Origin: Bacilli bacterium
Lineage (GTDB): Bacteria > Bacillota_I > Bacilli_A > RF39 > UBA660
Assembly: GCA_041655535.1 (NCBI GenBank)
Contig: JBBAFH010000003.1
Location: 72,910-136,909, forward strand
Length of the DNA stretch: 64,000 bases
Reading direction: 5' to 3'
The position numbers and the translations under genes were made by a program. The notes below the pieces were generated by a model. It did not search any database. It worked only from the letters and a program-made list of their open reading frames with translations, and was not told the origin of the DNA. This document shows positions 28,665 to 58,087 of this stretch, one piece after another. Numbering within the stretch: position 1 is the first letter of the stretch; each line of letters starts with the position of its first letter.

Positions 28665-28832
28665 TTATTTGTCACATTCAGCATATACGTTTATATCAAC
28701 GCAAGTATTGTTATCTTTATCATAGCAATGAGGATGTTCTTTTTCACATTTTACATAAATATTTATAGTTACACAATTATCTTTTTTTTCGGGTCGTTTT
28801 TTAATATCCTTGTCAATTTCTTTTTCTTTCAT
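28665..28832 (-). CDS. small cysteine-rich protein (55 aa), not in the ORF track
   Basis: MKEKEIDKDIKKRPEKKDNCVTINIYVKCEKEHPHCYDKDNNTCVDINVYAECDK. Strong RBS AGGAGGTG 8 nt upstream, and a terminator downstream. Five Cys at a regular 6-8 residue spacing. Confidence 0.5.
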   Translation of the reverse strand: MKEKEIDKDIKKRPEKKDNCVTINIYVKCEKEHPHCYDKDNNTCVDINVYAECDK

Positions 28833-28917: not shown

Positions 28918-29709
28918 CTAATCATTTTTGACTAGTCTTTTCTCAATATAGTAGACAATATAGTACATAATGGCTGAAACAAGCGAAAGGATAATTACAC
29001 CAGTTATTACTAAGTCTAAATTAAATACTTGAGAACCATACATTATTAAATACCCAATTCCTTTTTTCGATACTAAAAATTCTCCCATTATAATTCCGAT
29101 CAAAGACATACTAACATTTATTTTCAAAGCGCTGATAATGTTATTAAAACTACTTGGTAGAACAAGTTTGAAAAACGTTTGCCCTTTATTCGCACCAAGA
29201 GACTTCATTAATTTTACTTTTACTGGATCGGTTTCATTGAAACCTTGCAACACATTAATAATTGTAACAATTACTGATATAAGTAAAGCCATTACAATAA
29301 TTGAACCTGTTTTGGCCCCAATCCATATAATGATAATTGGTCCGAGTGCTACTTTTGGTAAACTATTTAATATTATAAGATAAGGTTCTAAAATTTTAGA
29401 AATAAATTTATTCCACCATAATGCTGCCGCAATAATTATTCCAATAAGGGTTCCAAGAGTAAAACTAACCACTGTTTCATAAACTGTTGTAAAAATATGT
29501 TGATATAAATCATTTGTTTGATGTAGTGTTATAAGCGTTTCAATAACTTTAGAAGGACTTGAAGAAACAAAAGTGTTAATGATTTTAAAATCAGCAAGTA
29601 ATTGCCAAATTCCAAAAAAAAGTATGGATAAAAGTATTTGAATAAACAGAATAATAATTTTTTCTTGTTTGATTTTTTTTAAGTATTTAATATGCTCTTT
29701 ACTATACAT
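28918..29709 (-). CDS. ABC transporter permease, NitT/TauT (SsuC/TauC-like) family
   Basis: 6 TM segments and a binding-protein-dependent transport EAA-like region. The ATG at 29709 overlaps the stop of the upstream ATPase C-fragment in the form ATGTATAG. Confidence 0.8.
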   Translation of the reverse strand: MYSKEHIKYLKKIKQEKIIILFIQILLSILFFGIWQLLADFKIINTFVSSSPSKVIETLITLHQTNDLYQHIFTTVYETVVSFTLGTLIGIIIAAALWWNKFISKILEPYLIILNSLPKVALGPIIIIWIGAKTGSIIVMALLISVIVTIINVLQGFNETDPVKVKLMKSLGANKGQTFFKLVLPSSFNNIISALKINVSMSLIGIIMGEFLVSKKGIGYLIMYGSQVFNLDLVITGVIILSLVSAIMYYIVYYIEKRLVKND

Positions 29710-29881
29710 GAAAATCAATTTCTTTCCATATTAAATCGTAGTAATACGCAAATTCTTTGGCTTTTCTGTTCTCGATAGGTGATGATTTATCTGTTAATTC
29801 TATATTATAAATACTTTTAATTGTTCCAGGCCTCTTTGTTAAAACAATAATTCGGTCTGCCATGCTTATGGCTTCACTCAT
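29702..29881 (-). pseudogene. C-terminal fragment of the NitT/TauT ABC ATPase gene split by the insertion
   Basis: MSEAISMADRIIVLTKRPGTIKSIYNIELTD...EIDFHV continues the H-loop region (VTHDIS|EAI...) of the ATPase whose N-terminal part is at 41858..42445. The ATG is created at the junction. Confidence 0.7.
29867..29881. repeat. left junction repeat (attL-like) TATGGCTTCACTCAT
   Basis: 13/15 identical to the right-end repeat. Contains the shared core CTTCACT (AGTGAAG on the gene strand). Confidence 0.55.
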
Positions 29882-30027
29882 AGGTACAATTAGTATGATA
29901 ATAAATTAACTTGACACATAAGCTTAATTAGGTGATGTTATGATAAAGTTAACAAAAGAACAACAGGTTAAAATTATTGCTTTTCTATTAAGGACTTCAA
30001 TTTCTAGGATGATTCAAAAGGATAATT

Positions 30028-31503
30028 GTGATAAAGTTGATTAATAATTTCAAAGTGGGTATTTATGTTAGAGTATCGACTGAAGATCAAAAAGAATTTG
30101 GTTATTCTATTCCACAACAAATAGACCTATTATCAAAACTAGCTAACAAAAACAATTGGTATATATATAAAATATATAATGATGCTGGGATAAGTGGAAA
30201 AAATACAGACCGTCCAAAGCTTAAAGAACTATTAGATGATATTAAAAATCAAAAAATAAATAAGGTTTTAATTACTAAGCTTGACAGATTATCAAGAAAT
30301 GTTGTTGATACGGCTACATTGTTAAATGTTTTTAATAGTTTTAATTGTGAGTTAATAGATAGTACAGGAAGAAAAATAGAATCAGATAATCCTAGTGATT
30401 GGTTATTTACTATCATTCAAAGTGCTTTTGGACAATACGAAAGAAAGGCAATTATCAATCGTATTAAAGATGGTTTTGCGGGCAAAGCGAAGATGGGGAA
30501 AACACTATGTAGTTCAACGCCACCATATGGATATAATCGTGAAAAAGGGAGTAATGAATTAATTGAAGACGAAGAGGAATCAACAATTGTAAAACGAATT
30601 TATAATATGTACCTTGATGGAAATACATTTGCAGATATTGCAAAAATACTTAATGCTTCAAAAATATTAACTAAAAAATCAAAAACTGGGAATAAAGTTA
30701 TTAAGTGGACTTCAAAAACAGTAAAGCTTATCTTGTCTAACTCAACTTATATAGGTAAAATTAGATATCATTTAAACAGGGATGATTACCAAGAATATAA
30801 TGGAACTCATATTCCTTTAATTGATATTGCAACATATAAAAAAGTTCAAGAAAAACATAAAAAAACAAGTTTAATATTTCGGACTAATAAACCCAAAGAG
30901 GATGTTTATTTTTGTGGAACCGTTGTGTGTGGGTGTTGCAATACGCTTTTAACAACACAAAGAACTAAAAGAAACAACAAAACATATTATGGCTATAGAT
31001 GTCGTAAACGTGAGTTAGGAACATGTAAAGGAACAAGTATAAGTCATAAAAAAGTTGAAAAGGCCTTTTTTAAATATTTAGAATCTATAAAACAATTTGA
31101 TATGATTGATAGTTTTGATGTTTCTTTTAATAATAATGATAATTTAGAAATTAGTGATTTAACAAAAAATATTAGCAAGTGTAAATCCAAAAAAAAAGAA
31201 ATAATGCAACTATTTATGAACGATAGTATTTCTAATGAGCAAATGAAGTTTATGATAAAAGAAATTACATCAAAAGATAAAATAATGAGTGAAAGGTTAA
31301 AAAAAATAAAAAATATACAAAAAACAAACCAAAACAATTTTGGAGGTATTTCTATTAATATAAGGAAACATTTTGAATTGTTAACTAATTTTGAACGACA
31401 TGAATTTTTAACACAGTTTATTGAATATATTGTCATAAAAAATGATGAAAAGAATAAAATAAATGGTTGCCCAGTGACGTTGAAAATAAAGTTTTATGAT
31501 TGA
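30028..31503 (+). CDS. large serine recombinase (resolvase/invertase catalytic domain + recombinase domain + zinc ribbon + coiled coil)
   Basis: N-terminal VGIYVRVSTEDQ (Ser nucleophile), KLDRLSRN. C-terminal Cys cluster CGTVVCGCCNTLLTTQRTKRNNKTYYGYRCRKRELGTCKG. Lys/Glu-rich coiled-coil tail. The exact start is ambiguous (GTG 30028, TTG 30037 or GTG 30055). Confidence 0.8.
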   Translation: MIKLINNFKVGIYVRVSTEDQKEFGYSIPQQIDLLSKLANKNNWYIYKIYNDAGISGKNTDRPKLKELLDDIKNQKINKVLITKLDRLSRNVVDTATLLNVFNSFNCELIDSTGRKIESDNPSDWLFTIIQSAFGQYERKAIINRIKDGFAGKAKMGKTLCSSTPPYGYNREKGSNELIEDEEESTIVKRIYNMYLDGNTFADIAKILNASKILTKKSKTGNKVIKWTSKTVKLILSNSTYIGKIRYHLNRDDYQEYNGTHIPLIDIATYKKVQEKHKKTSLIFRTNKPKEDVYFCGTVVCGCCNTLLTTQRTKRNNKTYYGYRCRKRELGTCKGTSISHKKVEKAFFKYLESIKQFDMIDSFDVSFNNNDNLEISDLTKNISKCKSKKKEIMQLFMNDSISNEQMKFMIKEITSKDKIMSERLKKIKNIQKTNQNNFGGISINIRKHFELLTNFERHEFLTQFIEYIVIKNDEKNKINGCPVTLKIKFYD

Positions 31504-31610
31504 TAAAAGCCTTTATGAGTCAATGTTATTAAGTTTTAATTTGATGGATTATGTGATATACTATATAAGTAGTAAGATAAATAAACAAACATAGGTGGTG
31601 GTGATTAAAG

Positions 31611-34600
31611 ATGATAAGCGGTAATGAATTTAATAGGATAAGAAAACATTATAATAAATTAATTAAAATGATTAATAATCATTTTTTTGTAGGTATTGTT
31701 AATGAGTGGATAATTGATAATTATTATTTATTAGTTGAACAAAAAGATTCTATCAAAAAGTTTACTAAAGATAAAAAAGCATATAGTTATACTAGTAAAT
31801 ATTTAAATATGTATGATGTTTTTAAAACTATTTTGGAAAAGTATAATTATAAAATAGATGAAAACATTATTATAAAAGAAGTGATTGATTATCAGAAAAC
31901 GACTGGTTATAATTTAAAATATAAAGAACTATCTATTATACCTTTAGTTATCAAAGTTTTGTTGTTAAGAGAAGTATCGATAATTTGTGAAGAAGAATCA
32001 TCAAAATTAAATGATAAAAAAGAAGTAAAAAATATTATTAACAAATTAAAGAAAATGGTTTTAAATAACGAGGAAATAGATTTAGCAAAGTATATAAATT
32101 TAAATAAAATGTCTAGTTATGGTGTTGTTTACTTTAATGAGCAATTTAAAGAGTTGGGAGAATATTCTAATGTAGTTTTCAAACAATTTAATAGTTTGTT
32201 AGAAAACAACAATAAAGTAATGATTGATATTATAAACAAGGAACATTTAAAGAGTACCGAGTCTAACATAATTATTAATAATATATTTTTAAGTTTTAAA
32301 GAAACTAACATTTTTGTTATGGAAAATATTTACGAAAAAGTTAATGATGTCGAGAAGTTACTTCAAGAAGATAAATTATATTCTAAAATGACTCTTGAAA
32401 CAAAAACTTTAATTCGTCAACATTTACTTAAACGCGCAAGACAAGACAAAGTTACTGCCGATACTTTAGTAAAAGATATTTTAGATGATTATAATAATAT
32501 TAGTGATGGACTTTTAAAAAAGAAGGATTATGGTTTTCTGAAGGTTATATTTTATCTAGTAATTGTATTTGCAATAACCGCTATTTTAAGCTATTATTTA
32601 TCAGTTTTTTTAACCAGTTATAGGTTATTAGGTTTTTTAGCACTTCTGATTCCAATTAGCGAAATAGTAAATATTGTTGTTCAAAATATGTTTTTAAGAC
32701 TATTTAGAACAAAACCATTGGCAAAACTAGATTTTTCAAAAGGAATACCATCTAATCATAAAACGATGGTTGTTATTCCAACTATTGTTAAAACTGAAGA
32801 AAAAATTAAACAAGTTTTTACTAGCTTAGAAAAGTATTATTTAATCAATAAAACAAGTAATTTATATTTCACTTTATTAAGTGATGCTTTTGAAAATAAT
32901 GAAGAAAATCACCAAAATGATTCTACTATTATTTCTTCTGGTGTGGCTGAAGCCGAAAGATTAAACAAAATATATGGTAAAAATATTTTTCATTTTGTCT
33001 ATCGCCGTCGTATATATAATAAAGGTGAAGGGACATGGCTAGGTTTTGAACGGAAAAGAGGGGCATTGCTTCATTTTAATGACTTGCTATTAGGTAATAT
33101 GAATGAAGAAGAACAAAAAAAATATTTTAAAGTTCATACTTTCCATAATTTTCATCATAAGATTAAATATGTAATTACTTTAGACGTAGATACTGAATTG
33201 GTTTTAAATAGTGCTTTAAAACTAGCTGGAACCATGGCACATCCTTTAAATAGACCCATTTTAAACGAATCAAAGACCAAGGTTATTGCTGGATACGGTA
33301 TATTACAACCTAGAATTAGTTTAGAAGTTGAAGCTAGCAATAAATCATTGTTTTCACAAATATATGCAGGAATTGGGGGCTTTGATCCATACAGTAATCT
33401 TTACCCTAACTTTTATCAAGATGTTTTTAAAGAAGGAACTTTTTATGGAAAAGGAATATATGACTTAAAGGTTTATCAACAAGTCTTAAAAAAACGTTTC
33501 CCAAACAATTTGATATTAAGTCATGATTTAGTTGAAGGAAATTATCTTCGTGCCGGGAATGTTACTGATATTGATTTAATTGATGGTTTTCCATCTAAAT
33601 TTTTAGTAGATGCTTCTAGACGCTCAAGATGGGCGAGAGGAGATATGCAAGTAATTAGTTGGATTGGAAATAAAGTTAGAAATGAATCTGGAATCAAAGA
33701 AAAAAATCCAATTAGTTTATTAGGTAAGTGGAAAATCATTGATAACATCAGACGCGGATTGATTAATGTATTTTTATTAATAATCCTTTTTCTAGCACTT
33801 AATAGTAATATTGTGAATCCCAACTGGTGGTTATTGTTTGTTATTTTAATATATATTTTACCAATCATTATTCAAGTTATCGAAAATTTTGTGATTAGTC
33901 GTTCTAGTTTTAGTTCCTTGAAATATTATCGCATATTAGTATTTGGTTATAGAGCACTTATTCTAAGAGCGATAACTGAACTATCAATAATTCCTTACAA
34001 TGCTTACTTATATTTAAACTCTTTTGTTCGTTCAATATATCGAATGACTATTAGTAAGAAGCATTTACTTAATTGGGTTACAGCTGATGACGCTGCTAAA
34101 TTAGTTAAAACTAATTTAGGTAATACAATTAAACAATTTTGGATCAACACTTTTTTAGCAATCATTTTAATTGTTTGGGCTTTATATTCTAAAGAACATC
34201 AATTATTAAAACTTGTTCTATCATTTATTTTTATGCTAGGTCCTGTTATTACCTATTTAATTAGTAAAGATTTAGCACACGATAAAAATAAAATTGAAAA
34301 AGATGGTATTGAAACATTAAATAATTTAGCTAAGAGTACTTGGAGTTACTTTAGTGACAATTTAACTGAAGAAAACAATTATTTAATTCCTGATAATTAT
34401 CAAGAAAATAGAGATATAAAACCAGATATTAAAACGTCACCAACTAACATTGGACTTTCGTTAGTATCGGTTATTTCAGCATGCGAATTAAAATTAATAA
34501 ATACTGATGAAGCACTTCATTTGCTCGAAAAAATAATTACATCTATTAAAAAATTAGATAAGTGGCATGGTCATCTATATAATTGGTATGATATTAAAAC

Positions 34601-37600
34601 TTTAAAAGTTATGTATCCTCATTTTATTTCGAGTGTTGATAGCGGCAACTTTGTTGCTTCTTTAATGGTGGCCAAAGGATTTGTTGAAAAATATAATCGA
34701 CTAGAATTACTGAAAATGATTGAAAGATTAATAAATAAAACAGAATTTCAGTATTTATATACAGACACTGATGTATTTAGTGTTGGATATCATGTTGACC
34801 AAGGTCGATTAGAACCATTTAATTATAATAAATTTATGAGCGAAAGCCGCATTTTAAGTTATTTAGCAATCGCTAAAGGTGACGTTCCTAGTAAGCATTG
34901 GTTTGGTCTTGATAAAACGTTAATAGCTTATAAAAATAAAAAAGGTTTATCATCATGGTCTGGTACTTTCTTTGAATATTATATGCCACTTCTATTTATG
35001 CCAAGTTATGCTAATACGATAATTGATGAGGCTTATCATTTTGCATACTATGTTCAAAGTGATTATATGAAAAAGTATAACAAAAATTATCCGTGGGGAA
35101 TTTCAGAATCCGCTTATAATGATCTAGATGATGCTCAAAACTATAAATATAAAGCATTTGGTATTCCACAGTTAAGGCTTCGGGAGGAAGCAAGTGAAAG
35201 AGTTGTTATATCTCCATATAGTTCCCTTCTAGCCTTACCTCTATTTCCAAAAGAAGTTATTAAAAATATTGAAAAATTTAAACCACTTAATATGTTTGGT
35301 AAATATGGATTATATGAATCATATGATTGTTTAGATGAATCACCAGTTGTATCATATTACGCCCATCATCAAGCAATGATTTTAGGAAGTCTTACAAACT
35401 TTTTAACAGATGGTGTTATTCAATCATATTTTTACAAAGATATTCGTAATCAAGCTGTTGATATGTTAATAAAAGAAAAGGTTCAATTAAGACCACACAT
35501 TAATTATGAGACAATGAGGTATAAGAAATATACATATGAGAAAGAATCTTTTGTTAATGATATTAGAGTTTATAATCAAATATCAAAACTACCTGAGTTG
35601 TCGGTTTTATCAAATTCAAAGTATAGTGTTATTATTAATGATCGAGGGAATGGATATAGTAAATATTATCAAATTAGATTAAATAGATATCGTAAGGTTA
35701 CTGAAAGGGATTATGGACAATTTTTATATATTAAAGATTTACAAACTAAAAAGGTTTGGTCAAACACATATGCCCCAATTAATGTAAAACCGAAAAAATA
35801 TGAAATAGTATATGCTTTAGATAATATAAAATTTGTTAGAGCAGATAAAGATGTTATTACTACTACTGAAATAGTGGTGACAAAATCACACAATGCTGAA
35901 ATAAGAAGAATCACTTTTAAAAATAATGGAAACAAAGATAAAGAGTTGGAATTAACAACTTATACAGAACCTATTTTAGGTCTTAATTCTGATGATATTG
36001 GTCATCCAGTATTTAACAATATGTTTGTCTATAGTGAATACGACAAAAAAACCAATTCTATTATTATGAAAAGGAAATTAAGAAATTCTGATACAAATTA
36101 TTACATGATAAGCCGATTATTTATAGAAGATCCAATTGGTTCCTTTGAGTATGAAACAAATCGTGATAATTTTATCGGTAGAGGTCGTAATACTAATAAT
36201 CCAAAATCAATTCATGAAAAACTTCGTAACTATGTTGGAACTACACTTGATCCAATCATTAGTTTAAGAAATAAAATTTTAGTACCTAAAAATAGTGAAA
36301 AAACAGTTTATTTAATCACTGGTTTTGGAAGATCACGAGAACATGTTTTAAACATTGTTAGAACCTATTGTAATAAACAAGTTATCAATGAAAAAGGGTT
36401 TGAAACGGCTATTATTATGAGTAATGCAAGCAATAAAATGGTTAATATGAGTAGCGATGACCGTCGTTTATATAATACAATGCTTAATTATCTATTACAG
36501 ACAAATTATATTGTTGTAAGCGACGAAATATTTGATAATTTAACTAAAAACACGTTAAATCAAACAAATTTATGGGGCTTTGGAATTTCTGGTGACAGAC
36601 CAATAATATTATTAGACTTAAAAGATTTAAGTGATTTGAGTTTGGTTAAAGAATTATTGCATGCTTTTGAATATTACAAAAGCAAAGCAATTTTCATTGA
36701 TTTGGTTATAATTAATAGTGAAAACGAACAATACGCTAAAGTTATAGCAAAAGAAATAGAAAACGAAAAATATCATATGTATGCTATTAATAACTTCTTC
36801 AATACGCCTGGTTCAATTTTTGTTTTAGATAGAAACAAAATTAGTGAAGAGGATTATATTTTATTAAAAACGGTTGCTAGACTAAAAATTGATAGTAATC
36901 TTCATAATTCACTGCAATACTATATTAATGAACTTCAAAAATTAAACACAGTGAAAACTAAGCATAATGAAAATGAAGTTCCAAGTTTACCGATTAAGTA
37001 TGACAAAAACAAAATAAAATTCTTTAATGAATTTGGTGGTTTTATTAATAATGGTAAAGAATATTTAATAGTTGACCCAAATACTCCTTCAGCTTGGAGT
37101 AATGTCATTTCTAATAAAAACTTTGGAACAGTTATTACTAATAATAACTGTGGGTTCACTTATGCCGTAAACAGTAGAGAGTACAAATTAACGTCTTGGA
37201 CTAATGATGCTTTAGTTAATGATTATTCAGAAGGGTTTAAAATTAATGATATGAAAATCAATTTCAGTCATGTTAAATTTGGATTCGGTTATAGTGAGTA
37301 TATAGGAAACTTTAAACGAGTCGATCTTAATTTAATTCAATTTGTAGCAAAGGAAGATAACGTTAAATTTTATAAGATGAAACTAAAAAACAATTCTGCT
37401 CGTAAACAAAGAATTATTTTGAAGTTTTGGATAAACCCTAATCTTGGGTTTACTGAAGAAAAAACAGGACGTTATTTACTAAGTGAATTTAATGAAAAGA
37501 ATAATTATTTAAGTATCAGAAATGTTTATAGTCAAAAGTTTAATCATTTATATGCATATATGTCTAGTACTGAAAAAATAAACAACGCTATACTCAATAA

Positions 37601-39275
37601 TTTGTTAGTTAAAGAAATTGAAGTTGATTTCTATCTAGATGAAAAGGAAGAAAAAGAATTGGTCTTTACTTTAGGTAGTTCCACTAAAGATAATTTAGAT
37701 ACACTTGTCACGAAATATAATGATATTGCAAAAGTTAATGAAGAATTATCTAATATCAAAAATCATTGGGACGATATATTAACTACTGTTCAAATAAAAA
37801 CACCTGATGAAAGTTTTGATTATATATTAAATGGTTGGGCTTTATATCAAAGTATTGCTTCTAGATTACAAGCACGTGCAGGATTTTATCAAGTTGGTGG
37901 TGCATATGGATTTCGTGATCAATTACAAGATTCAATGAATGTATGCAGTATTGATCCTAGTATTACAAGGAATCAAATATTATTTAATGCTGCTCACCAA
38001 TTTAAAGAAGGAGATGTTCTTCATTGGTGGCACCCTAAATTAGATATTGGCTTGCGTTCATTATATAAGGATGATTATTTGTGGTTAATCTACGCAATTA
38101 GTGAGTATCTAAAAATTACTGAAGATTTTAGTATTTTAGATGAACAAGTACCATTTATTACAGGATTCGCACTTGAACCACACGAACATGAAAAGCTAAT
38201 TAATTACAAAGTTGGCGAAGAAACGTCTAGTATTTATGATCGTTGTATATTAATAATAAATAAAGCAATGAATGAACTAGGTCAAAATGGTTTACCCCTT
38301 ATGGGTGGTGGTGACTGGAACGATGGGATGAATAAGATAGGTATTGAAGGAAAAGGAACCAGTGTTTGGCTAGGATTTTTCTTGTACCAATTAATTAATG
38401 AATTCATGGCATTTGTTGATAAATATGATGCTAATATTGATTTAAGCATTTATAATGATTTTAACAAAGAACTAAAAGAATCTTTAAGAAATGTTGCGTG
38501 GGATGGTAAGTATTATTTAAGAGCTTTCTTTGATAATGGTCAACCAGTAGGATCAAATACTAATGAAGAATGCACAATAGATTTATTATCACAAAGTTTC
38601 GCCATATTATCTGGTGTAGCCGATTCTAAACAAATTGATACAATGATTGAGTCAGTAGAAACTAAGTTAGTTGATAATGATTTAAAAATTATTAAACTTT
38701 TGACACCAGCATTCTCTAAAAACAAAAATAATCCAGGATATATTATGGATTATCCTAAAGGAATTAGAGAAAATGGTGGTCAATATACTCATGCTGTCGC
38801 TTGGTACATTCAAGCCCTACTAAAAATAGGAAAGAATGATTTAGCATTCGATCACTATCAAATGATGAATCCAATTAATCGCACTAAAACTAAGGAAGAT
38901 GCATTGAAATATAAAGTTGAACCATATGTTTTTGTAGCGGATATCTATAGTAACGAAAATTTTGCTGGTCAAGGTGGATGGAGTTGGTATACCGGAACTA
39001 GTGGTTGGTTTTACAATGTCGCCCTTACAGATATTATTGGATTTAATTTAAGAGGTGACAAATTATATGTCACTCCTAATGTTCCGATTAAATGGAATGA
39101 CTTTGAAATAACTTATCGTTATCAAGACACGGTTTATAAAATAAAAGTTATGCTAAAAGAACCTAAAGACGAGATTATAATTGATAATAAAGTTACCTAT
39201 TATAATTATATAGAGTTAATAAATGATAAGAAAATACACACAGTTTTAGTAAAGAAAGGAGAGCAAAATGATTAA
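31611..39275 (+). CDS. giant multidomain glucan synthase, cyclic beta-1,2-glucan synthase (Cgs/NdvB/ChvB)-like: N-terminal region + GT-A glycosyltransferase + TM segments + C-terminal GH94-type phosphorylase domain
   Basis: 2554 aa. GT-A signatures ITLDVDTE (DxD) and RRSRWARGD (QxxRW-like), with multiple TM helices on either side. C-terminal region carries GGAYGFRDQLQDSMN, GGGDWNDGMN and WSWYTGTSGW, typical of GH94 (cellobiose/chitobiose phosphorylase-like) catalytic domains. RBS GGTGGTGGTGA. Confidence 0.7.
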   Translation: MISGNEFNRIRKHYNKLIKMINNHFFVGIVNEWIIDNYYLLVEQKDSIKKFTKDKKAYSYTSKYLNMYDVFKTILEKYNYKIDENIIIKEVIDYQKTTGYNLKYKELSIIPLVIKVLLLREVSIICEEESSKLNDKKEVKNIINKLKKMVLNNEEIDLAKYINLNKMSSYGVVYFNEQFKELGEYSNVVFKQFNSLLENNNKVMIDIINKEHLKSTESNIIINNIFLSFKETNIFVMENIYEKVNDVEKLLQEDKLYSKMTLETKTLIRQHLLKRARQDKVTADTLVKDILDDYNNISDGLLKKKDYGFLKVIFYLVIVFAITAILSYYLSVFLTSYRLLGFLALLIPISEIVNIVVQNMFLRLFRTKPLAKLDFSKGIPSNHKTMVVIPTIVKTEEKIKQVFTSLEKYYLINKTSNLYFTLLSDAFENNEENHQNDSTIISSGVAEAERLNKIYGKNIFHFVYRRRIYNKGEGTWLGFERKRGALLHFNDLLLGNMNEEEQKKYFKVHTFHNFHHKIKYVITLDVDTELVLNSALKLAGTMAHPLNRPILNESKTKVIAGYGILQPRISLEVEASNKSLFSQIYAGIGGFDPYSNLYPNFYQDVFKEGTFYGKGIYDLKVYQQVLKKRFPNNLILSHDLVEGNYLRAGNVTDIDLIDGFPSKFLVDASRRSRWARGDMQVISWIGNKVRNESGIKEKNPISLLGKWKIIDNIRRGLINVFLLIILFLALNSNIVNPNWWLLFVILIYILPIIIQVIENFVISRSSFSSLKYYRILVFGYRALILRAITELSIIPYNAYLYLNSFVRSIYRMTISKKHLLNWVTADDAAKLVKTNLGNTIKQFWINTFLAIILIVWALYSKEHQLLKLVLSFIFMLGPVITYLISKDLAHDKNKIEKDGIETLNNLAKSTWSYFSDNLTEENNYLIPDNYQENRDIKPDIKTSPTNIGLSLVSVISACELKLINTDEALHLLEKIITSIKKLDKWHGHLYNWYDIKTLKVMYPHFISSVDSGNFVASLMVAKGFVEKYNRLELLKMIERLINKTEFQYLYTDTDVFSVGYHVDQGRLEPFNYNKFMSESRILSYLAIAKGDVPSKHWFGLDKTLIAYKNKKGLSSWSGTFFEYYMPLLFMPSYANTIIDEAYHFAYYVQSDYMKKYNKNYPWGISESAYNDLDDAQNYKYKAFGIPQLRLREEASERVVISPYSSLLALPLFPKEVIKNIEKFKPLNMFGKYGLYESYDCLDESPVVSYYAHHQAMILGSLTNFLTDGVIQSYFYKDIRNQAVDMLIKEKVQLRPHINYETMRYKKYTYEKESFVNDIRVYNQISKLPELSVLSNSKYSVIINDRGNGYSKYYQIRLNRYRKVTERDYGQFLYIKDLQTKKVWSNTYAPINVKPKKYEIVYALDNIKFVRADKDVITTTEIVVTKSHNAEIRRITFKNNGNKDKELELTTYTEPILGLNSDDIGHPVFNNMFVYSEYDKKTNSIIMKRKLRNSDTNYYMISRLFIEDPIGSFEYETNRDNFIGRGRNTNNPKSIHEKLRNYVGTTLDPIISLRNKILVPKNSEKTVYLITGFGRSREHVLNIVRTYCNKQVINEKGFETAIIMSNASNKMVNMSSDDRRLYNTMLNYLLQTNYIVVSDEIFDNLTKNTLNQTNLWGFGISGDRPIILLDLKDLSDLSLVKELLHAFEYYKSKAIFIDLVIINSENEQYAKVIAKEIENEKYHMYAINNFFNTPGSIFVLDRNKISEEDYILLKTVARLKIDSNLHNSLQYYINELQKLNTVKTKHNENEVPSLPIKYDKNKIKFFNEFGGFINNGKEYLIVDPNTPSAWSNVISNKNFGTVITNNNCGFTYAVNSREYKLTSWTNDALVNDYSEGFKINDMKINFSHVKFGFGYSEYIGNFKRVDLNLIQFVAKEDNVKFYKMKLKNNSARKQRIILKFWINPNLGFTEEKTGRYLLSEFNEKNNYLSIRNVYSQKFNHLYAYMSSTEKINNAILNNLLVKEIEVDFYLDEKEEKELVFTLGSSTKDNLDTLVTKYNDIAKVNEELSNIKNHWDDILTTVQIKTPDESFDYILNGWALYQSIASRLQARAGFYQVGGAYGFRDQLQDSMNVCSIDPSITRNQILFNAAHQFKEGDVLHWWHPKLDIGLRSLYKDDYLWLIYAISEYLKITEDFSILDEQVPFITGFALEPHEHEKLINYKVGEETSSIYDRCILIINKAMNELGQNGLPLMGGGDWNDGMNKIGIEGKGTSVWLGFFLYQLINEFMAFVDKYDANIDLSIYNDFNKELKESLRNVAWDGKYYLRAFFDNGQPVGSNTNEECTIDLLSQSFAILSGVADSKQIDTMIESVETKLVDNDLKIIKLLTPAFSKNKNNPGYIMDYPKGIRENGGQYTHAVAWYIQALLKIGKNDLAFDHYQMMNPINRTKTKEDALKYKVEPYVFVADIYSNENFAGQGGWSWYTGTSGWFYNVALTDIIGFNLRGDKLYVTPNVPIKWNDFEITYRYQDTVYKIKVMLKEPKDEIIIDNKVTYYNYIELINDKKIHTVLVKKGEQND

Positions 39276-40470
39276 ATTTGATTTTAACACTTATATGAAA
39301 TCATTTGATAGAGTTGGAAATTATCAGTCTAAAATAAATAAAATAATTAATTTATTAGAAACAGGAACATCGATGAATGATTGGTATGATATAGACAAAT
39401 GTATTACGCCAGGAGTTTTAGAAGATATTTTAGAAACAAGTAAATATATTCGTAATAATTGTGATGTTTTTATTGTTATTGGAGTGGGTGGATCATCATT
39501 AGGTGCAAAAGCTGTTGTTGATGCATTCAAACCTTATTTCAAAAAAAGCAATCCCGAAATAATCTTTTTGGGATCATCACTATCATCAGTTTATTTAAAA
39601 GAATTGTTAAAATATATTGAAGGTAAAGAGGTAATTATTAATGTGATTTCTAAATCCGGGACGACTTTTGAAACAAATCTATATTTTGAATATATCTACA
39701 AGGAACTTAATAAAAGATATGTTGAAGACGAGCTTAATAAAAGAATAATTATAACAACTGATGCAAAAGAAGGAAGTCTTAGACAATTAGTTAATCAAAA
39801 AAATTACAAATCTTTTGTTTTACCAAGTAATATTGGTGGGAGATATTCAGTTATGACAGTTGTTGGTCTTTTACCAATAGCGGTTTCAGGTATAGATATA
39901 AATGAAATGATTCTTGGTGCCAAAGCATTAGATAAACAGAAATCTTTTGATTATGCTGTCAGCAGGGATCTTTTATACAAATACGGAAAAAAAGTGGAAT
40001 CACTTACTATTTATGAACCAAAACTATTATCATTAGTTGAAAGTATCAAACAAGTACTTGCTGAAACCCAAGGAAAAGAAGGTAAAGCTATTTTGCCAAT
40101 TGCTTCGATTAATACTGGAGATCTGCACTCTTTGGGGCAGTTTTATCAAGAAGGCAGTCAAATATTATTTGAAACAGTTATTAACGTTGAATATAATAAC
40201 GATATCGTTATATCTAAATATAATAAAAAATTAGATGATATAAACAAAATAGTTGCTAGTCAAGTAGCGACTTCTCATATGAAAAATGATGTTTATAGTA
40301 ATTTTATATCACTTGATGCATTAACTCCTTTTAATATAGGTCAACTAATTTATTTCTTTGAAATAGCCGCAGCAGCAGGTGCATACCTACTTGAAGTGGA
40401 ACCATTTGGTCAACCTGGTGTAAGTGAATATAAAAAATTAGTTGCAAGGGAACTTGATAATAATGAGTAA
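39268..40470 (+). CDS. pgi: glucose-6-phosphate isomerase (short, Bacillus/archaeal-type PGI)
   Basis: 400 aa, ...VIGVGGSSLGAKAV..., ...ISKSGTTFET..., GGRYSVMTVVGLLP. Start overlaps the giant gene's stop by 8 nt. Confidence 0.8.
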   Translation: MIKFDFNTYMKSFDRVGNYQSKINKIINLLETGTSMNDWYDIDKCITPGVLEDILETSKYIRNNCDVFIVIGVGGSSLGAKAVVDAFKPYFKKSNPEIIFLGSSLSSVYLKELLKYIEGKEVIINVISKSGTTFETNLYFEYIYKELNKRYVEDELNKRIIITTDAKEGSLRQLVNQKNYKSFVLPSNIGGRYSVMTVVGLLPIAVSGIDINEMILGAKALDKQKSFDYAVSRDLLYKYGKKVESLTIYEPKLLSLVESIKQVLAETQGKEGKAILPIASINTGDLHSLGQFYQEGSQILFETVINVEYNNDIVISKYNKKLDDINKIVASQVATSHMKNDVYSNFISLDALTPFNIGQLIYFFEIAAAAGAYLLEVEPFGQPGVSEYKKLVARELDNNE

Positions 40471-41830
40471 AATAAATCCATTAATTTTTAGAGCTTATGA
40501 TATTAGAGGTATCTATCCGATTGATATTAACGAAGAAATGGCTTTTATAATAGGTTGCAGTTTTGGAACTTATATTACTAGTATTGGTAAAACAGAAGCT
40601 TTAGTTGGATACGATAACCGTTTATCTTCTCCTTCTTTAAGGGATTCGTTAATTAAAGGAATTACTAGTACCGGAATCAACGTTATCGATCTAGGGCTTA
40701 TTACAACACCGATGTTTTATTATGCTAGAACATATTTAAATGTTTGGTCTGGAATAATGATTACAGCAAGCCATAATCCAAGTGATCATAATGGATTTAA
40801 ATTATCTTTTACCGAAATTGGAAATGCTCTTGGAGAAGAAATTACCGATTTTTATAATTTTACGATCAAGGGAGAATTTATAGATGGAAATGGTACTATA
40901 AATCATTACAATATTAAAAACGACTATATAGAACTTATTAAAAATTCCCTTGATTTGGGAGGTAAAAAAATCAAAGTGGTTGTTGATTGTGGGAACGGAA
41001 CTACATCAGTTGTCATAAAAGATATTCTTGATTCATTACCAATTGTTTATGAGTTGATGTATGCAGAAAGCGATCCAACTTTTCCAAATCATCATCCTGA
41101 TCCATCAGTGCCAGAAAACTTAATTGATCTTCAAAAACGAGTAGTTGAGTTAAATTGCGATTTAGGACTTGCTCTAGATGCTGATGGAGACCGTATTGGA
41201 CTTGTCGATAATTTAGGCAATGTTATTGATAGTGATTTATATATGATTATAATGTATCGTTATTTAAGTAAAAATATGAAAAATAAGACGGCGCTTTATG
41301 ACGTAAAATGTTCAAAATCATTGATTAATGAAATAGATAAACTTGGTTTAAAACATATTATGAATCGTACTGGTAATTCATATGTATACAGAAGACTTCA
41401 TCAAGAAAATATTGAATTTGGTGGAGAATATTCTGGACATATCTTCTTTAAAGATAAATTTCCAGGATTTGATGATGGTATTTATGCTGGTCTTAGAATG
41501 GTTGAAGTATTGTCAACAACTGGTAAAATGATAAGTGAATTATCAGAAGGGATTAATAAATATTATTCGACTGATGAAATAAAAGTAACAGTTGCTGATG
41601 AAAAAAAATTCAAGGTAATAGAAAAGATAAAAGAAATATTGAAAAATAAAAAAATACCATTTAAAGATATTGATGGTGTAAGAGTTGAAACGAATGACTT
41701 TTGGGTGTTAGTAAGAGCTTCAAATACAACGCCTAACTTAACAGTTAGATTTGAGGCTAATAGTGAAAAGTTACTTGAAAAAATAAAAGATGAATATTTT
41801 GAACTAATTAATAAAGTAATAAAAGGATAA
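40463..41830 (+). CDS. phosphoglucomutase/phosphomannomutase (alpha-D-phosphohexomutase family)
   Basis: MSKINPLIFRAYDIRG..., active-site TASHNP, metal loop DADGDR, GEYSGH. The ATG at 40463 overlaps the pgi stop in the form ATGAGTAA. Confidence 0.8.
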   Translation: MSKINPLIFRAYDIRGIYPIDINEEMAFIIGCSFGTYITSIGKTEALVGYDNRLSSPSLRDSLIKGITSTGINVIDLGLITTPMFYYARTYLNVWSGIMITASHNPSDHNGFKLSFTEIGNALGEEITDFYNFTIKGEFIDGNGTINHYNIKNDYIELIKNSLDLGGKKIKVVVDCGNGTTSVVIKDILDSLPIVYELMYAESDPTFPNHHPDPSVPENLIDLQKRVVELNCDLGLALDADGDRIGLVDNLGNVIDSDLYMIIMYRYLSKNMKNKTALYDVKCSKSLINEIDKLGLKHIMNRTGNSYVYRRLHQENIEFGGEYSGHIFFKDKFPGFDDGIYAGLRMVEVLSTTGKMISELSEGINKYYSTDEIKVTVADEKKFKVIEKIKEILKNKKIPFKDIDGVRVETNDFWVLVRASNTTPNLTVRFEANSEKLLEKIKDEYFELINKVIKG

Positions 41831-41857
41831 TATAATTATCTTTTTTTTTATACTTAT

Positions 41858-42445
41858 TTAGTATATGCCTTCACTTATATCATGGGTGACCATTATGACA
41901 CTTTTTTTTTCTTTTTTGATAATTTTATAAACATCATCTGATACTGCTAACCTCGTTTGATAATCAAGTGCTGAAAAAGGTTCATCTAACAAAAGAATAT
42001 CTGGTTTCGTGGCCAGCGTTCTAATTAGAGCCGCTCTTTGTCGCATCCCCCCGGATAAACTACTAGGATAATTATCCACAAAATCACCGAGGCCATAAGT
42101 ATTTAGTAACTTTATTACGTAATCAGTATTTTCTTTTGTTAATTCATTTTTGATTTCTAAACCAATTAAACAGTTATTTAAAATTGTTCGCCAATTAAAC
42201 AAATTATCTTGTTGTAGCATGTACCCAATTGTAGAATTTTCATTAAAATTAACTGTTCCTTCTGATATTTTTTCTAAACCACATAAAATTGATAGAATAG
42301 TCGACTTTCCGCATCCACTTGGGCCAACAATGGCCACAAACTCCCCTTCATACAAATTAAAAGAAAAGTTATCAACAGCTAATATTTCACCTTGTTTAGT
42401 ATGATAAATTTTCTTTAAGTTTTCAATATTTAATATTTTATTCAT
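41858..42445 (-). pseudogene. N-terminal fragment (195 aa) of the NitT/TauT-type ABC transporter ATP-binding protein, truncated by the insertion
   Basis: Walker A GPSGCGKST, signature LSGGMRQR, Walker B LLLDEPFSALD, H-loop VTHDIS, then an abrupt ...EGIY stop at the element boundary. The remainder is found at 29702..29881. Confidence 0.75.
41864..41878. repeat. right junction repeat (attR-like) TATGCCTTCACTTAT
   Basis: Direct repeat of the 29867-29881 sequence. Lies immediately adjacent to the truncated ATPase N-fragment stop. Confidence 0.55.
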
Positions 42446-43436
42446 TATTATTTTCTACGGAAAAACTTACATCAACTAATTTGTTATATGGAGCTTTTTT
42501 ATTTAATTCTCCTGCAGATTCCATTATTGTTTGAACATGTTCAAAATCTTTTTTTTCAATTTTTGTGGTTTTATACCATGAATCAATACTCTTATATCTG
42601 TCTACCACTTTAGTAACATCATTAATTGATGTGTCTGGAAAATAATCAATTATGTTTTTAGCAATATCTTCTGATTTATTGTTATGAACATAATTTAACC
42701 CTTTTTGAATTGCTCTTGTAAAGCCTTCAATTAATTCTTTGTTGTCATCTATATAACTTTTTTTCGCACTATATGTTGTATACGGAACAACACCACCGAG
42801 TTCACCAACCGATGCAACAACATGACCATATCCTTGTTTTTCTATTTGAAGTGCTAAAGGTTCAAATAGAGTAACATAATCCCCATTACCACCAATAAAT
42901 GATCCTGCCATAGCAGCAAAAGCAATACTTGTATCGATGTTAACATCTTTTTTAGGATTAATGCCATTAGTCTTAAGTGCCCATTCGAATGTCATTTCTG
43001 GCATTCCACCTTTTCGACCACCTATAACATTCATTCCTCTCATGTCACTAAGTTTAAAATTATCAATTTTTTTTCTAGAAACTATGAAACTACCATCTCT
43101 TTTAGTTAAACCCGAAAAATTAATTAGATAATCTTCTTCACCTTCATTATAAATATAAATTGATGCTTCACTTCCACAAAACCCAATATTAACATCTCCA
43201 GATAAAACAGCAGCAGCTACTTTATCGGCACCAGGTACTAACATTAATTCGACATCTAATCCCTCATCTTCAAAATAACCTAAAGAATGTGCAATATATT
43301 GTGGGGCGTAAAAAATACTGTGAGTAACTTCTGCAACTTTTACTTTCGTTAAATCTTTATTTTTGTCTTTGAAAGCAAATAAGGTCCCTAATGCTATTAG
43401 TAAAACAATAAAAATCGATATAATAATTTTTTTCAA
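42438..43436 (-). CDS. ABC transporter substrate-binding protein, NMT1/THI5-like (NitT/TauT family)
   Basis: 332 aa, N-terminal signal/anchor. 8-nt overlap with the ATPase start, so it is the first gene of the SBP-ATPase-permease operon. Confidence 0.7.
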   Translation of the reverse strand: MKKIIISIFIVLLIALGTLFAFKDKNKDLTKVKVAEVTHSIFYAPQYIAHSLGYFEDEGLDVELMLVPGADKVAAAVLSGDVNIGFCGSEASIYIYNEGEEDYLINFSGLTKRDGSFIVSRKKIDNFKLSDMRGMNVIGGRKGGMPEMTFEWALKTNGINPKKDVNIDTSIAFAAMAGSFIGGNGDYVTLFEPLALQIEKQGYGHVVASVGELGGVVPYTTYSAKKSYIDDNKELIEGFTRAIQKGLNYVHNNKSEDIAKNIIDYFPDTSINDVTKVVDRYKSIDSWYKTTKIEKKDFEHVQTIMESAGELNKKAPYNKLVDVSFSVENNNE

Positions 43437-43589
43437 AACAAATTCCTCCTTTTATTTCATTGTTATTATATTCATTATGTTTTTAGGAGTGACATTATAA
43501 AGCGGATATAAAATATGATTATAATGATTACTTTACTTTTTTTGAATTAAATGTTATTATAACGTCATAAATAATTGGGGGGTGTGCCT

Positions 43590-48159: not shown

Positions 48160-49017
48160 ATGTTAAAGATTAGAAAGGCTATTATTCCAATTGCAGGGAT
48201 GGGGACAAGATTTTTACCAATAACTAAGTCAAATGCTAAGGAAATGCTTCCGATAATCGATAAACCAATTATCCATCTTATTGTTGAGGATGCAATTAAA
48301 AGTGGAATTGAGGAAATTTTATTTATTACTAGTTCAACTAAAAAAACGGTTGAAGATTATTTTGATTTTAATTATGAGTTAGAGGCAAGGCTTGAAAAAA
48401 GTGGTAAAATGGAACAATTATCAATGGTTAAAGAAATAACTAACATGGGAAACTTTCATTTTATTAGACAAGGAGAACCACTAGGTACCGCGCATGCGAT
48501 ATCACTTGCTAAAACCTTTGTTGGTAATGAACCATTTGCTGTTCTTTATGGTGATAACCTAATCAAATCAATGACACCAGCGTTAAAACAATTGATTGAT
48601 ACATATGAAAAATATGATTGTAATGTGGTTGGGGTTCAAGAAGTACCAAAAGAAGAAATTTATAAATATGGAATTATGGATTATTATAATAGTGACAGTT
48701 TAAAAATTAAAGAGATGGTTGAAAAACCAGCGATTGGAACAGTTGAAAGTACAAGCGCTAGTCTTGGAATGTATATTTTAAAACCAGAAATATTTGAAGA
48801 GATTGAAAAGGTGGAAGCTAAAAATGGTGAATATTGTTTAACTGATGCAATGGAAACCTTAATAAATAAACAAGATTTTTATGCTTGTATTCTTGATGGA
48901 ACTTGGTACGATACTGGAAATCAAGTGGGTTTTTTAAAAGCAAACATTGCATATGCATTTGATAATCCATTATATAAAAAAGAAATTTTAGAACTTGTAA
49001 GAGAATTAGATAAGTAG
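48160..49017 (+). CDS. galU: UTP--glucose-1-phosphate uridylyltransferase
   Basis: 285 aa, AIIPIAGMGTRFLPITKSNAKEMLPI..., GEPLGTAHA. Confidence 0.85.
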   Translation: MLKIRKAIIPIAGMGTRFLPITKSNAKEMLPIIDKPIIHLIVEDAIKSGIEEILFITSSTKKTVEDYFDFNYELEARLEKSGKMEQLSMVKEITNMGNFHFIRQGEPLGTAHAISLAKTFVGNEPFAVLYGDNLIKSMTPALKQLIDTYEKYDCNVVGVQEVPKEEIYKYGIMDYYNSDSLKIKEMVEKPAIGTVESTSASLGMYILKPEIFEEIEKVEAKNGEYCLTDAMETLINKQDFYACILDGTWYDTGNQVGFLKANIAYAFDNPLYKKEILELVRELDK

Positions 49018-53523: not shown

Positions 53524-53569
53524 ATATTTAAGAAATGTTTTCATATAATTAATTGAAACAGAGAGGGTG

Positions 53570-57813: not shown

Positions 57814-57894
57814 TCAAAAAGCATTGATTAAATAGTTTGGTTATTATATAATAAAAAAAGAAATCAAGGAACTTGAGGAGTAAATATAATGAAT

Positions 57895-58087
57895 TTATAG
57901 AGAGTTAGTGGATGGTGGAAACTAATAATAAGTTATGTTGAAAGTCGCAAGGGAGATTAATATCCGAATAGTTAAGATATTACGTATATATGCGTTAAAT
58001 AGTTGAGATATAGTAATTTTTGATTGCTATAAATTAAGGTGGTACCACGTAATCACGTCCTTATGTTTTATAAGGACGTTTTTTTAT
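57895..58087 (+). promoter_or_regulatory. T-box riboswitch leader (Val-specific by context) with terminator
   Basis: T-box sequence AATTAAGGTGGTACCACG (58031-58048) vs consensus AATTAGGGTGGTACCGCG. AGAGAG and a GTGGATGGTGGAAAC distal region lie upstream. Terminator ACGTCCTTAtgttttaTAAGGACGT followed by a T7 run. The downstream operon ends in valS. Candidate GUU specifier at 57932-57934 or 57937-57939. Confidence 0.75.

Follow-up and report, generated by a model that had tools for sequence, protein, structure and literature searches.

A large serine recombinase cassette carrying a predicted cyclic β-1,2-glucan synthase operon interrupts a YtlC-like ABC importer ATPase gene in an uncultured Bacilli bacterium

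Why is an ABC transporter operon in an uncultured member of the Bacilli cut in two by 12 kb of DNA running in the opposite direction, and is the cut permanent? The operon lies in a 64,000-nucleotide stretch of contig JBBAFH010000003.1 (GenBank assembly GCA_041655535.1, positions 72,910 to 136,909 of the forward strand), hereafter called the window, and encodes a substrate-binding protein (SBP), an ATPase and a permease (Table 1). The original prediction, made from this DNA alone, held that an integrative element encoding a large serine recombinase (LSR) had entered the ATPase gene and inactivated it. In this study, we compared the window with related contigs and proteins (L and P numbers, respectively). 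The interruption is an insertion, and we consider it likely to be a non-phage, non-conjugative LSR cassette that has spread horizontally and is precisely excisable, the split of the ATPase gene not being permanent.

The operon is split as predicted: open reading frames (ORFs) and Pfam matches identify the SBP gene, the ATPase head, its distant tail and the permease. Read as an ORF, the N-terminal fragment (42445..41858, minus strand) has 195 amino acids and ends in ...VTHDISEGIY*; its stop codon at 41858 is element DNA, three codons past ...VTHDISE. The C-terminal ORF (29881..29702, minus strand, 59 codons) reads MSEAISMADRII...EIDFHV*. Its opening ATG appears incidental because it is derived from the element, has no Shine-Dalgarno sequence and is missing from related cassettes. 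For the latter two reasons, an ATPase working as two translated pieces is also unlikely. The end of the ATPase gene overlaps the permease start (ATG at 29709) by 8 nt (ATGTATAG), which bears out the coupling of the tail to the permease noticed earlier.

Virtual excision of 11,997 bp between equivalent core positions (e.g., 29875-41871) yields a continuous 248-aa ATPase (...VTHDISEAISMADRII...) that is 98% identical to P0001, an intact 248-aa protein of a sister species. P0001 is encoded on L001 (a 50.5-kb contig) and L002, where the ATPase halves are contiguous and the neighbours are those of the window, with rbfA-infB-nusA on one side and Fic-PcrA-GalU-LigA on the other. Alignment of the window with L001 gives two flank blocks of approximately 90–91% nucleotide identity, whose overlap of 8 bp falls exactly on the core, and the empty site in L001/L002 breaks exactly at the cassette ends. 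The deletion first proposed (29882-41863) keeps the frame, but it leaves a 253-aa product with five extra residues (...SEGIMSEAIS...); the expected sequence is obtained by core-to-core excision. All of the contigs with an identical LSR (4/4) show the integrated arrangement, and identical junctions recur in no fewer than four independent assemblies of the species of the window, as well as in several other species. That the source is a metagenome-assembled contig is all that could be said for a chimeric assembly, and this explanation, like that of an ancient rearrangement, is hardly tenable in view of the base-exact restoration of the gene, the empty site and the recurrence of identical junctions. 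Because of these three observations, the 12-kb interruption is an insertion and not an assembly artefact or an ancient rearrangement.

The junctions have the anatomy of LSR attachment sites. The 15-mers TATGGCTTCACTCAT (29867-81) and TATGCCTTCACTTAT (41864-78), reported earlier as junction repeats, are the sole two matches in the 64 kb at up to two mismatches, where chance expects 0.18; they differ from each other at two positions, and each holds the core CTTCACT. The reconstructed attB is CCATGATATAAGT-GA-AGCCATAAGCATGG and the reconstructed attP is CATACTAATTGTACCTATGAGT-GA-AGGCATATACTAAATAAGTATA (as 60-mers, CATAATGGTCACCCATGATATAAGTGAAGCCATAAGCATGGCAGACCGAATTATTGTTTTA and ATTATCATACTAATTGTACCTATGAGTGAAGGCATATACTAAATAAGTATAAAAAAAAAGA, respectively). 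Both are imperfect palindromes centred on GA, and the attP is identical to the one proposed in the original prediction (TACCTATGAGTGAAGGCATATAC). The GA centre falls in the Glu codon that follows the H-loop of the ATPase (THDIS-E-AIS). Across seven related cassettes, the core shared by attL and attR measures 11 bp at most and hardly exceeds GA at its shortest. GA is the only dinucleotide common to both sites in 7/7 cassettes; the crossover would thus lie at GA/TC (Table 1). A 7-bp core with palindromic arms around a non-palindromic dinucleotide is the geometry expected for an LSR.

Table 1 Features of the interrupted operon and of the cassette in the window.
Feature	Position	Strand	Evidence or remark
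Permease, YtlD-like	28918-29709	-	Pfam BPD_transp_1
Host ATPase tail, 56 codons and stop	29702-29874	-	ORF list, virtual excision
attL core CTTCACT	29872-29878		Same at both junctions; putative crossover TC at 29874-75 (GA on the ATPase coding strand)
Integrated cassette body	29879-41868	+	Net insertion 11,997 bp, one core copy counted
P' arm of attP, CATAGGTACAATTAGTATGATAATAAA	29879-29905		Kept in L010, L011 and L005
Conserved motif CATAAGCTTAAT	29917-29928	+	Directly upstream of the Shine-Dalgarno sequence of the small ORF; possible promoter -10 or operator site
34-aa ORF, MIKLTKEQQVKIIAFLLRTSISRM...	29940-30044	+	AGGTGA Shine-Dalgarno sequence; overlaps the LSR start
LSR, 491 aa	30028-31503	+	Resolvase, Recombinase and Zn_ribbon_recom
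Promoter of the cgs operon	31540-31562	+	TTGATG-N17-extended -10 TGTGATATACT, read from sequence
Predicted cyclic β-1,2-glucan synthase (Cgs/NdvB/ChvB type), 2554 aa	31611-39275	+	PDB and Pfam
Glucose-6-phosphate isomerase (pgi), 400 aa	39268-40470	+	Pfam PGI; NF010697 E 5e-110, below cut-off
Phosphoglucomutase/phosphomannomutase (pgm), 455 aa	40463-41830	+	4/4 PGM_PMM domains; PgmG E 3e-126, below cut-off
Hairpin and T-run terminator, over the pgm stop codon	41825-41849	+	Read from sequence; stem GGATAAT/ATTATCC perfect in L010
P arm of attP, ...ATACTTATTTAGTATATGC	41846-41868		ATATACT(A/G)AAT(T/A)A common to the L011, L020 and L130 cassettes
attR core CTTCACT	41869-41875		Putative crossover TC at 41871-72
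Host ATPase head, 192 codons, Walker A to H-loop	41870-42445	-	Pfam ABC_tran
SBP gene, NMT1/SsuA-type, YtlA-like	42438-43436	-	Pfam NMT1
Operon promoter region, CAC-N16-AATATAATAAC	43462-43493	-	Kept in the window, L010, L001, L012 and L016

The insert comprises five genes, namely the 34-aa ORF, the LSR gene, cgs, pgi and pgm, all on the strand opposite to the host operon. The LSR gene starts 150 bp inside the left junction, as stated in the original prediction, and the three cargo genes named there are confirmed by their domains. The LSR matches PF00239, PF07508 and PF13408 above their cut-offs and the phrog_95 integrases with an E value of 4e-109, and its catalytic Ser17 (RVSTE) is invariant across the family. 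The best NCBIfam model is XisF, at 156 bits (cut-off 375), and the CcrB/CcrC and CcrA models give 131–146 and 88.5 bits, respectively (cut-offs 700–900). A phage origin of the LSR was considered and rejected, as the nearest phage integrases are distant: no GenBank phage integrase exceeds 37% identity and no full-length integrase in IMG/VR exceeds 36%, while one partial match in IMG/VR (residues 7-359) reaches 42%. None of the five genes encodes a phage structural, packaging or lysis protein, and the only phage-like features are the integrase and the small phrog_30936-like ORF. Inspection of ORFs and Pfam matches in the 12 kb revealed no relaxase, coupling protein or type IV secretion system gene, although an oriT could escape sequence reading, and no replication gene is present in the insert. 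Scans of the window for tRNA genes and Rfam families returned nothing relevant, except for a distant T-box.

All relatives, even at 35% LSR identity, have a small ORF overlapping the LSR start. It carries the conserved motif KLTKEQQxxIxxFxxxTSIPRM, and its homologues in L011, L005, L020 and L019 match phrog_30936, a family of no known function (E 1e-5 to 8e-7). We regard it as a candidate recombination directionality factor or accessory protein. The motif CATAAGCTTAAT upstream of it is kept as CATA(A/G)G(A/C)TTAA even where the recombinases of the cassettes share no more than 58–64% identity. This motif resembles the CATA---T -10 element of mother-cell sigma factors.

LSRs with 39–100% identity are found at the same ATPase codon in at least seven lineages, with five cargo sets. 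The same cassette occupies the same site in L003/L010, L004, L005/L006, L007-L009/L011, L022 and L047. Its LSR is 79% identical to that of the window in L003/L010 (GCA_028706395.1), 64% in L005/L006 (GCA_028707455.1 and an ENA contig) and 59% in L007-L009, L011 and L022 (GCA_964410275.1 and others); in the L005/L006 and L007-group genomes, the genes past the permease are quite unlike those of the window. Other cargo lies between the same ATPase fragments in four further pairs of contigs, with LSRs that are 39–41% identical: a polysaccharide O-acyl/deacetylase module (SGNH/MBOAT/AlgX/deacetylase) in L018/L019 (L018:4164-11548), Peptidase_S51 in L020/L021 (L020:8780-11902), LemA, a helix-turn-helix (HTH) protein and DUF6591 in L128/L129 (L128:3688-13149), and a ClpP-like protein, a small resolvase and an HTH protein in L130/L131 (L130:4334-11590). 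The LSR relatives P0130 (43%) and P0159 (35%) are encoded in contexts other than an ABC ATPase gene on the contigs examined. These comparisons assign the cassette of the window to a family of LSR cassettes with one site and interchangeable cargo that appears to be previously undescribed; the searchable literature contains no report of a ytlC-like target, of this LSR family or of a mobile cgs operon.

Three side observations concern members and relatives of this family. In L018, L128 and L130, the cargo is located upstream of the LSR gene and not downstream. The locus of P0130 (L045:1-11658), the closest LSR outside the ATPase-targeting group, also encodes a single-stranded DNA-binding protein, a small resolvase, a DnaB-like helicase, a RecA-like protein and a Ser/Thr kinase; L045 could be part of a plasmid or phage-like replicon that carried the backbone or gave rise to it. 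In L006:11602-19493, cgs is split into parts of 2073 and 523 aa, and in the near-identical L005:8856-9479 the permease is called at 207 rather than 262 aa, which reflects either early decay or assembly errors.

The relationships of the hosts and of the cassettes disagree. According to host genes, the L005 and L007 hosts fall outside the group formed by the window, L001, L003 and the recombinase-less L012, L014 and L016. The window shares 67% (permease), 65% (PcrA), 64% (LigA) and 54% (GalU) identity with the L007/L011 genome, and 83%, 76% and 78% identity with L012 for permease, PcrA and LigA, respectively. For the cargo GH94 region, the order is reversed: the window is 76–80% identical to L007/L005 (76% to L007/L011), compared with 73% to L012 and 64% to L016. 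This argument depends on ratios of distances and not on tree topology, since the unrooted trees of the three groups are mutually compatible. Similarly, the LSR modules L130:9746-11515 and L020:9200-10984 share 81% nucleotide identity, while their hosts share 67–70% and their cargo is different. These patterns indicate that the cassette has moved horizontally between hosts, among related and presumably spore-forming Bacilli, and that backbone and cargo recombine independently. Transfer between the distant hosts by homologous recombination of the flanks was considered and rejected, because identity to L007/L011 is not raised near the junctions (ATPase C-terminal part 79%, permease 63–67%). Elsewhere in the window, a protein encoded at 62273-62650 resembles type IV pilins and competence pseudopilins (N_methyl motif); natural transformation could be a route for a cassette without transfer genes.

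The main cargo gene is predicted to encode a full-length cyclic β-1,2-glucan synthase. The 2554-aa protein matches Agrobacterium tumefaciens Cgs in the PDB (8rf9/8rf0, E=0) in three stretches, with residues 316-1020 aligning to Cgs 398-1095. A further match (E 4e-98) is to the 596-aa chain 8wy1, which was deposited under the name 'Glycosyltransferase 36' and which we take to be the cyclisation domain of a Firmicute Cgs. The protein carries PF10091, PF06165 and PF17167, with Glycoamylase and C-terminal GH94 domains. This agrees with the Cgs layout, in which a membrane-embedded GT84 region, a central cyclisation domain and a C-terminal GH94 phosphorylase domain are joined in a single chain. The promoter of the operon is kept in L010 and L005, and LSR-less copies have an equivalent TG-TATACT promoter. 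The most likely start of pgm is at 40463 rather than 40442. Together with host galU (48160-49017, 6 kb away), the cargo would provide a complete path from fructose-6-phosphate through UDP-glucose to cyclic β-1,2-glucan.

The original prediction described the cargo as foreign-looking, which is not borne out. The GC content of the insert (0.21–0.32) shows no contrast with that of the flanks (0.25–0.35), so that composition was dismissed as a sign of foreignness, and cgs-pgi-pgm belongs to the native chromosomal operons of this group of bacteria. In three related species (L012:24-14217, L014:110-15062 with L023, and L016:73-14111), the gene order is feoB, cgs, pgi, pgm, followed in the opposite direction by the permease, the intact ATPase and SBP genes, without a recombinase; cgs-pgi-pgm thus abuts the permease 3' end of an intact target operon. 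The feoAB genes are also sigma-K dependent in Clostridioides difficile (PMC3789822). A third context, between an asnS-like gene and a helicase gene, yvcK, whiA, rplI and dnaB, is found in L015, L025:437-20825 and L026, and cgs-pgi pairs at 44–48% identity are widespread. In a PGI tree rooted on L017 and a midpoint-rooted GH94 tree, the LSR-borne copies nest inside the LSR-less diversity. Because of this nesting and the position of the LSR-less cargo next to the intact operon, the cassette in the ATPase gene probably captured its cgs-pgi-pgm operon from 0.9 kb away. The cargo of L016 groups with L015/L025/L026 at 76%, though its flanks resemble those of L012 and L014, which suggests that the operon was replaced in situ.

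Whether the split gene is dead can be judged from selection. We compared the window with L003/L010, both occupied, with dS values of 0.4–1.0 throughout. The dN/dS ratio is 0.035 for the ATPase head, 0 for the tail (no amino-acid change in 56 codons at a dS of 0.97), 0.047 for the permease and 0.11 for the binding protein; the housekeeping proteins PcrA and GalU give 0.042 and 0.046, respectively, and the LSR gives 0.14. At the amino-acid level, the tail is 100% identical to those of L001 and L003 at dS values of 0.38–0.97, and both ATPase fragments are free of frameshifts and stops in 7/7 occupied lineages. The split operon thus appears to be under purifying selection at a housekeeping level and not to be decaying, so the interruption is probably removable rather than the mark of a dead gene, and excision would be recurrent or regulated rather than a dead end. 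Accordingly, only part of the claim that an integrative element inactivates the transporter stands: the insertion holds, and any inactivation is probably not permanent. In their host flanks, the window, the empty L001 and L003 are nearly equidistant (a near-trichotomy, 88.5–90.7% nucleotide identity), and the cassettes of the window and L003 share 86%. Window and L003 are mutually closest for host and cassette alike, as vertical inheritance predicts.

We propose the following course of events, which the arrangement of the locus makes likely. The LSR, the sole mobility gene, would have recombined a palindromic attP with an imperfectly palindromic attB just after the H-loop codons, with the small ORF translationally coupled to the LSR gene at its upstream end. 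Integration would have cut the ATPase gene into a head of 192 codons and a tail of 56 codons. With 12 kb of DNA in the opposite orientation between the operon promoter and the tail and permease genes, the importer would be off while the cassette is integrated. The own promoter of the cassette would drive cgs-pgi-pgm, whose products, with host GalU, could convert fructose-6-phosphate to cyclic β-1,2-glucan. Precise excision by the LSR would rebuild the ATPase gene exactly; its directionality probably depends on the small ORF or some other factor. That the LSR is active may be read, indirectly, from its dN/dS of 0.14, the horizontal transfer and the empty site amid occupied relatives.

Several observations weigh against this proposal. 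The silencing of the importer is deduced from gene geometry alone, as promoter and terminator scans of the AT-rich window give counts equal to those of shuffled sequence. The 34-aa ORF of the window itself has no match in PHROG. No circular or attP-bearing contig was present in the pgi-centred metagenome scan and LSR look-ups, and no empty site was found within the species of the window. As for the cargo, no single LSR-catalysed step turns an operon beside the transporter genes into cargo inside the ATPase gene, the surroundings of recombinase-less cgs operons yield only chance-level short matches to the LSR backbone or att arms, and the feoB slot has seen an exchange of cargo of its own (80% identity between L012 and L014, 64–65% between L016 and both, with equidistant flanks); the direction of capture is thus unproven. 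Finally, the element dS between the window and L003 (0.74–0.84) exceeds the host dS (0.39–0.69). The insertions in the two genomes could therefore be independent and young, which would weaken the selection argument; the alternative is that the cassette has been inherited since before the species split, with the gene still functional, and was precisely lost in L001.

Independent acquisition would also suit a simple knock-out by insertion, with rapid turnover, of a gene that is dispensable under some conditions. Young insertions would then inactivate the importer until the cassette is lost, the fragments would look intact only because of their recency, and the site would serve as a conserved safe harbour. 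Empty, occupied and differently occupied sites among relatives, the clear horizontal transfer and cargo swapping, and the lack of an excision product among contigs with this LSR are all compatible with such turnover. The mutual proximity of window and L003 for both host and cassette, the intact ATPase fragments of all seven occupied lineages and the purifying selection on the LSR itself are harder to reconcile with it, and we regard it as unlikely, if worth keeping in mind. A reversible vegetative switch, as in the active lysogeny of the Listeria comK prophage, would combine signal-driven excision and importer expression with re-integration of the circle. An LSR alone catalyses attP x attB recombination efficiently (PMC12286644), so that re-integration would be mechanistically easy, and the selection pattern is compatible. 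We nevertheless consider the switch improbable: the five-gene cassette has neither a replication function to keep the circle during growth nor a regulator gene, and no circles were seen among the contigs scanned.

If the cassette is precisely excisable, the identity of its target bears on the timing of excision. Over its full length, the restored ATPase shares 44–49% identity with the Bacillaceae YtlC family (221–246 bits); with Escherichia coli SsuB, it shares 35% over 192 aa (129 bits). The YtlC family matches in the database include a B. subtilis-group cluster and one protein named YtlC. The protein P0295, a 195-aa YtlC on a B. subtilis-group contig, was considered as another split gene and proved to be merely N-terminally truncated. 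The gene order SBP-ATPase-permease is that of ytlA-(B)-C-D. The target can be described as the ATPase of a YtlC-like importer of the NitT/TauT type, a sub-family-level similarity with orthology to ytlC unproven. In B. subtilis, ytlA, ytlC and ytlD are core sporulation genes of the sigma-K regulon (PMC3416734), and the C. difficile ytlC homologue CD1927 drops to 0.08 in a sigK mutant (PMC3789822). The function of the YtlACD importer is unknown (PMC11466899).

A special case of the excisable cassette would therefore be a programmed rearrangement of the sporulation type, in which the LSR with a directionality factor excises the cassette only in the terminally differentiated mother cell, the germ line keeping it, and thereby rebuilds a sigma-K-dependent ytlACD-like operon, as known for skin/sigK, SPbeta/spsM and gin/gerE. 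We see this as a real possibility, a little short of an even chance. Besides the YtlC-like ATPase with its matching gene order and the sigma-K dependence of ytlA/C/D and CD1927, it draws on sporulation genes in relatives (gerA/gerAC in L132, whose ATPase is 90% identical, and in L014; a YabG-like gene in L005). It also draws on a LysM protein in the window that is weakly similar to SpoVID-N (E 7.7e-4, below cut-off). This protein and an adjacent 299-aa ORF (53567-55196) lie just after lon and before valS, in a stretch that resembles the lon...spoVID-ysxE...valS region of B. subtilis. Set against this, the capacity of these uncultured lineages to sporulate is judged from few genes, neither spo0A nor sigK was found within the available sequence, and similarity to ytlC holds at the sub-family level only. 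The promoter of the operon (CAC-N16-AATATAAT) has one mismatch to the sigma-K type AC-N16-CATATAAT; its assignment is ambiguous because it also contains a perfect sigma-A -10 element. No sporulation-sigma promoter could be assigned to the LSR gene or the small ORF. Mother-cell excision predicts that a gene stays under purifying selection although its germ-line copy is split, and it gains from a second LSR family that splits the SBP gene of the same operon.

In L014:15942-20351 and L132:83-5414, an LSR of this second family forms the end of an element inserted at approximately codon 35 of the SBP gene (...AEVTHSIFY). The two LSRs (547 and 552 aa) are 71% identical to each other and 26–28% identical to that of the window; SBP DNA supplies the stop codon of the LSR gene, and gerA/gerAC adjoin. 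We tentatively suggest a new system of regulated gene integrity, for which the case remains somewhat doubtful. In such a system, a ytlACD-like, probably sigma-K-dependent operon would serve as the landing pad for at least two LSR families, with germ-line cassettes excised in the mother cell or in a sub-population, free swapping of cargo, and mobilisation of a neighbouring cyclic glucan operon.

The closest parallel among known elements is gin in gerE of Bacillus cereus ATCC10987, with the LSR GirC and the directionality factor GirX (PMC5595907). Both elements are non-phage, split a coding sequence by LSR chemistry and lack transfer genes. Their cores (9 bp in gin, 7 bp in the window cassette) lie inside imperfect inverted repeats, and precise excision rebuilds the ORF in gin and, virtually, in the window cassette. 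The differences are in content and target: gin has 31 genes with three recombinases and interrupts the gene of a transcription factor, whereas the window cassette has five genes with one recombinase, a defined metabolic operon as cargo and an ABC ATPase as target. Excision of gin has been shown experimentally and is sporulation-specific, while the window cassette is known from sequence alone. LSR-mediated interruption with the pieces kept intact is likewise seen with SPbeta/SprA-SprB in spsM and skin/SpoIVCA in sigK of B. subtilis and with skinCd of C. difficile. These interrupt mother-cell genes of the sigma-K period and have small, unrelated directionality factors. They are prophages or remnants, unlike the window cassette, whose LSR is far from phage integrases. 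Prophages or remnants of the SPbeta/skin type measure 48–134 kb.

The staphylococcal cassette chromosome (SCC) elements (CcrAB/CcrC) are similar as LSR-borne cassette families without transfer genes that use one site and show interchangeable cargo and composite evolution. SCC enters the 3' end of rlmH without destroying it, in contrast to the window family, which cuts its target mid-gene; the scores of the Ccr models (88–146 bits against cut-offs of 700–900) and the ABC ATPase target place the cassette outside SCC. Prophages A118 and phi10403S in Listeria comK and the Anabaena fdxN element (XisF) are alike in LSR, intragenic attB and reconstitution of the gene on excision. However, the former are phages and the latter is a heterocyst element of 55 kb, and their targets and hosts differ from those of the window. 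Candidates for regulated gene integrity have been mapped by TIGER (Mageeney et al. 2020, PMC7192596), with an operational definition of at least two independent elements, with integrases of one tight clade, that disrupt the same domain at the same position. The window case agrees with this definition, with five cargo types at the same Glu codon, the tightness of the clade being judged from the 39–100% LSR identity and the shared small ORF alone. The main text of the survey, Table 2 aside, names no ABC transporter target (PMC7192596), and the hosts of the window cassette are uncultured. The finding would thus extend the known LSR gene-intervening elements, as a candidate case of regulated gene integrity.

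Some neighbouring features are recorded here in their own right. Directly downstream of the permease, a 55-aa ORF rich in Cys, Lys and Asp (28665-28832, minus strand) is kept in L001, L003 and L047. In L003 (L003:7168-8881), this ORF and the permease gene are separated by an extra 1.7 kb that is missing from the window and L001 and contains three ORFs of 175, 196 and 143 aa, none with a recorded Pfam match. At 56710-57813, the window encodes a 367-aa protein with a strong match to the ALK/LTK glycine-rich domain (PF12810, E 5e-48), which is unusual in a bacterium; the protein has an N-terminal hydrophobic segment. A T-box leader (57858-58065) is located upstream of HD-domain and valS genes.

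The cassette is a small, well-delimited LSR system with a backbone of approximately 1.7 kb (att site, 34-aa ORF and LSR), attB and attP sites of 50–60 bp and natural variants, and recombinase/att pairs of this kind serve as genome-engineering tools. The family indicates that one intragenic site in a conserved ABC ATPase gene can serve the exchange of cargo throughout a bacterial clade. Among the exchanged cargo is a 7.7-kb operon for a predicted cyclic β-1,2-glucan synthase, an enzyme otherwise found mostly in Proteobacteria. If excision is regulated, programmed gene reconstitution would be known from a transporter operon as well, and from uncultured Bacilli of guts and digesters, and the cassette would offer a genetic handle on ytlACD, a conserved sporulation-regulon importer of unknown function. 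If the system is indeed new, a biosynthetic operon of the housekeeping type would have been turned into a site-specific mobile cassette.

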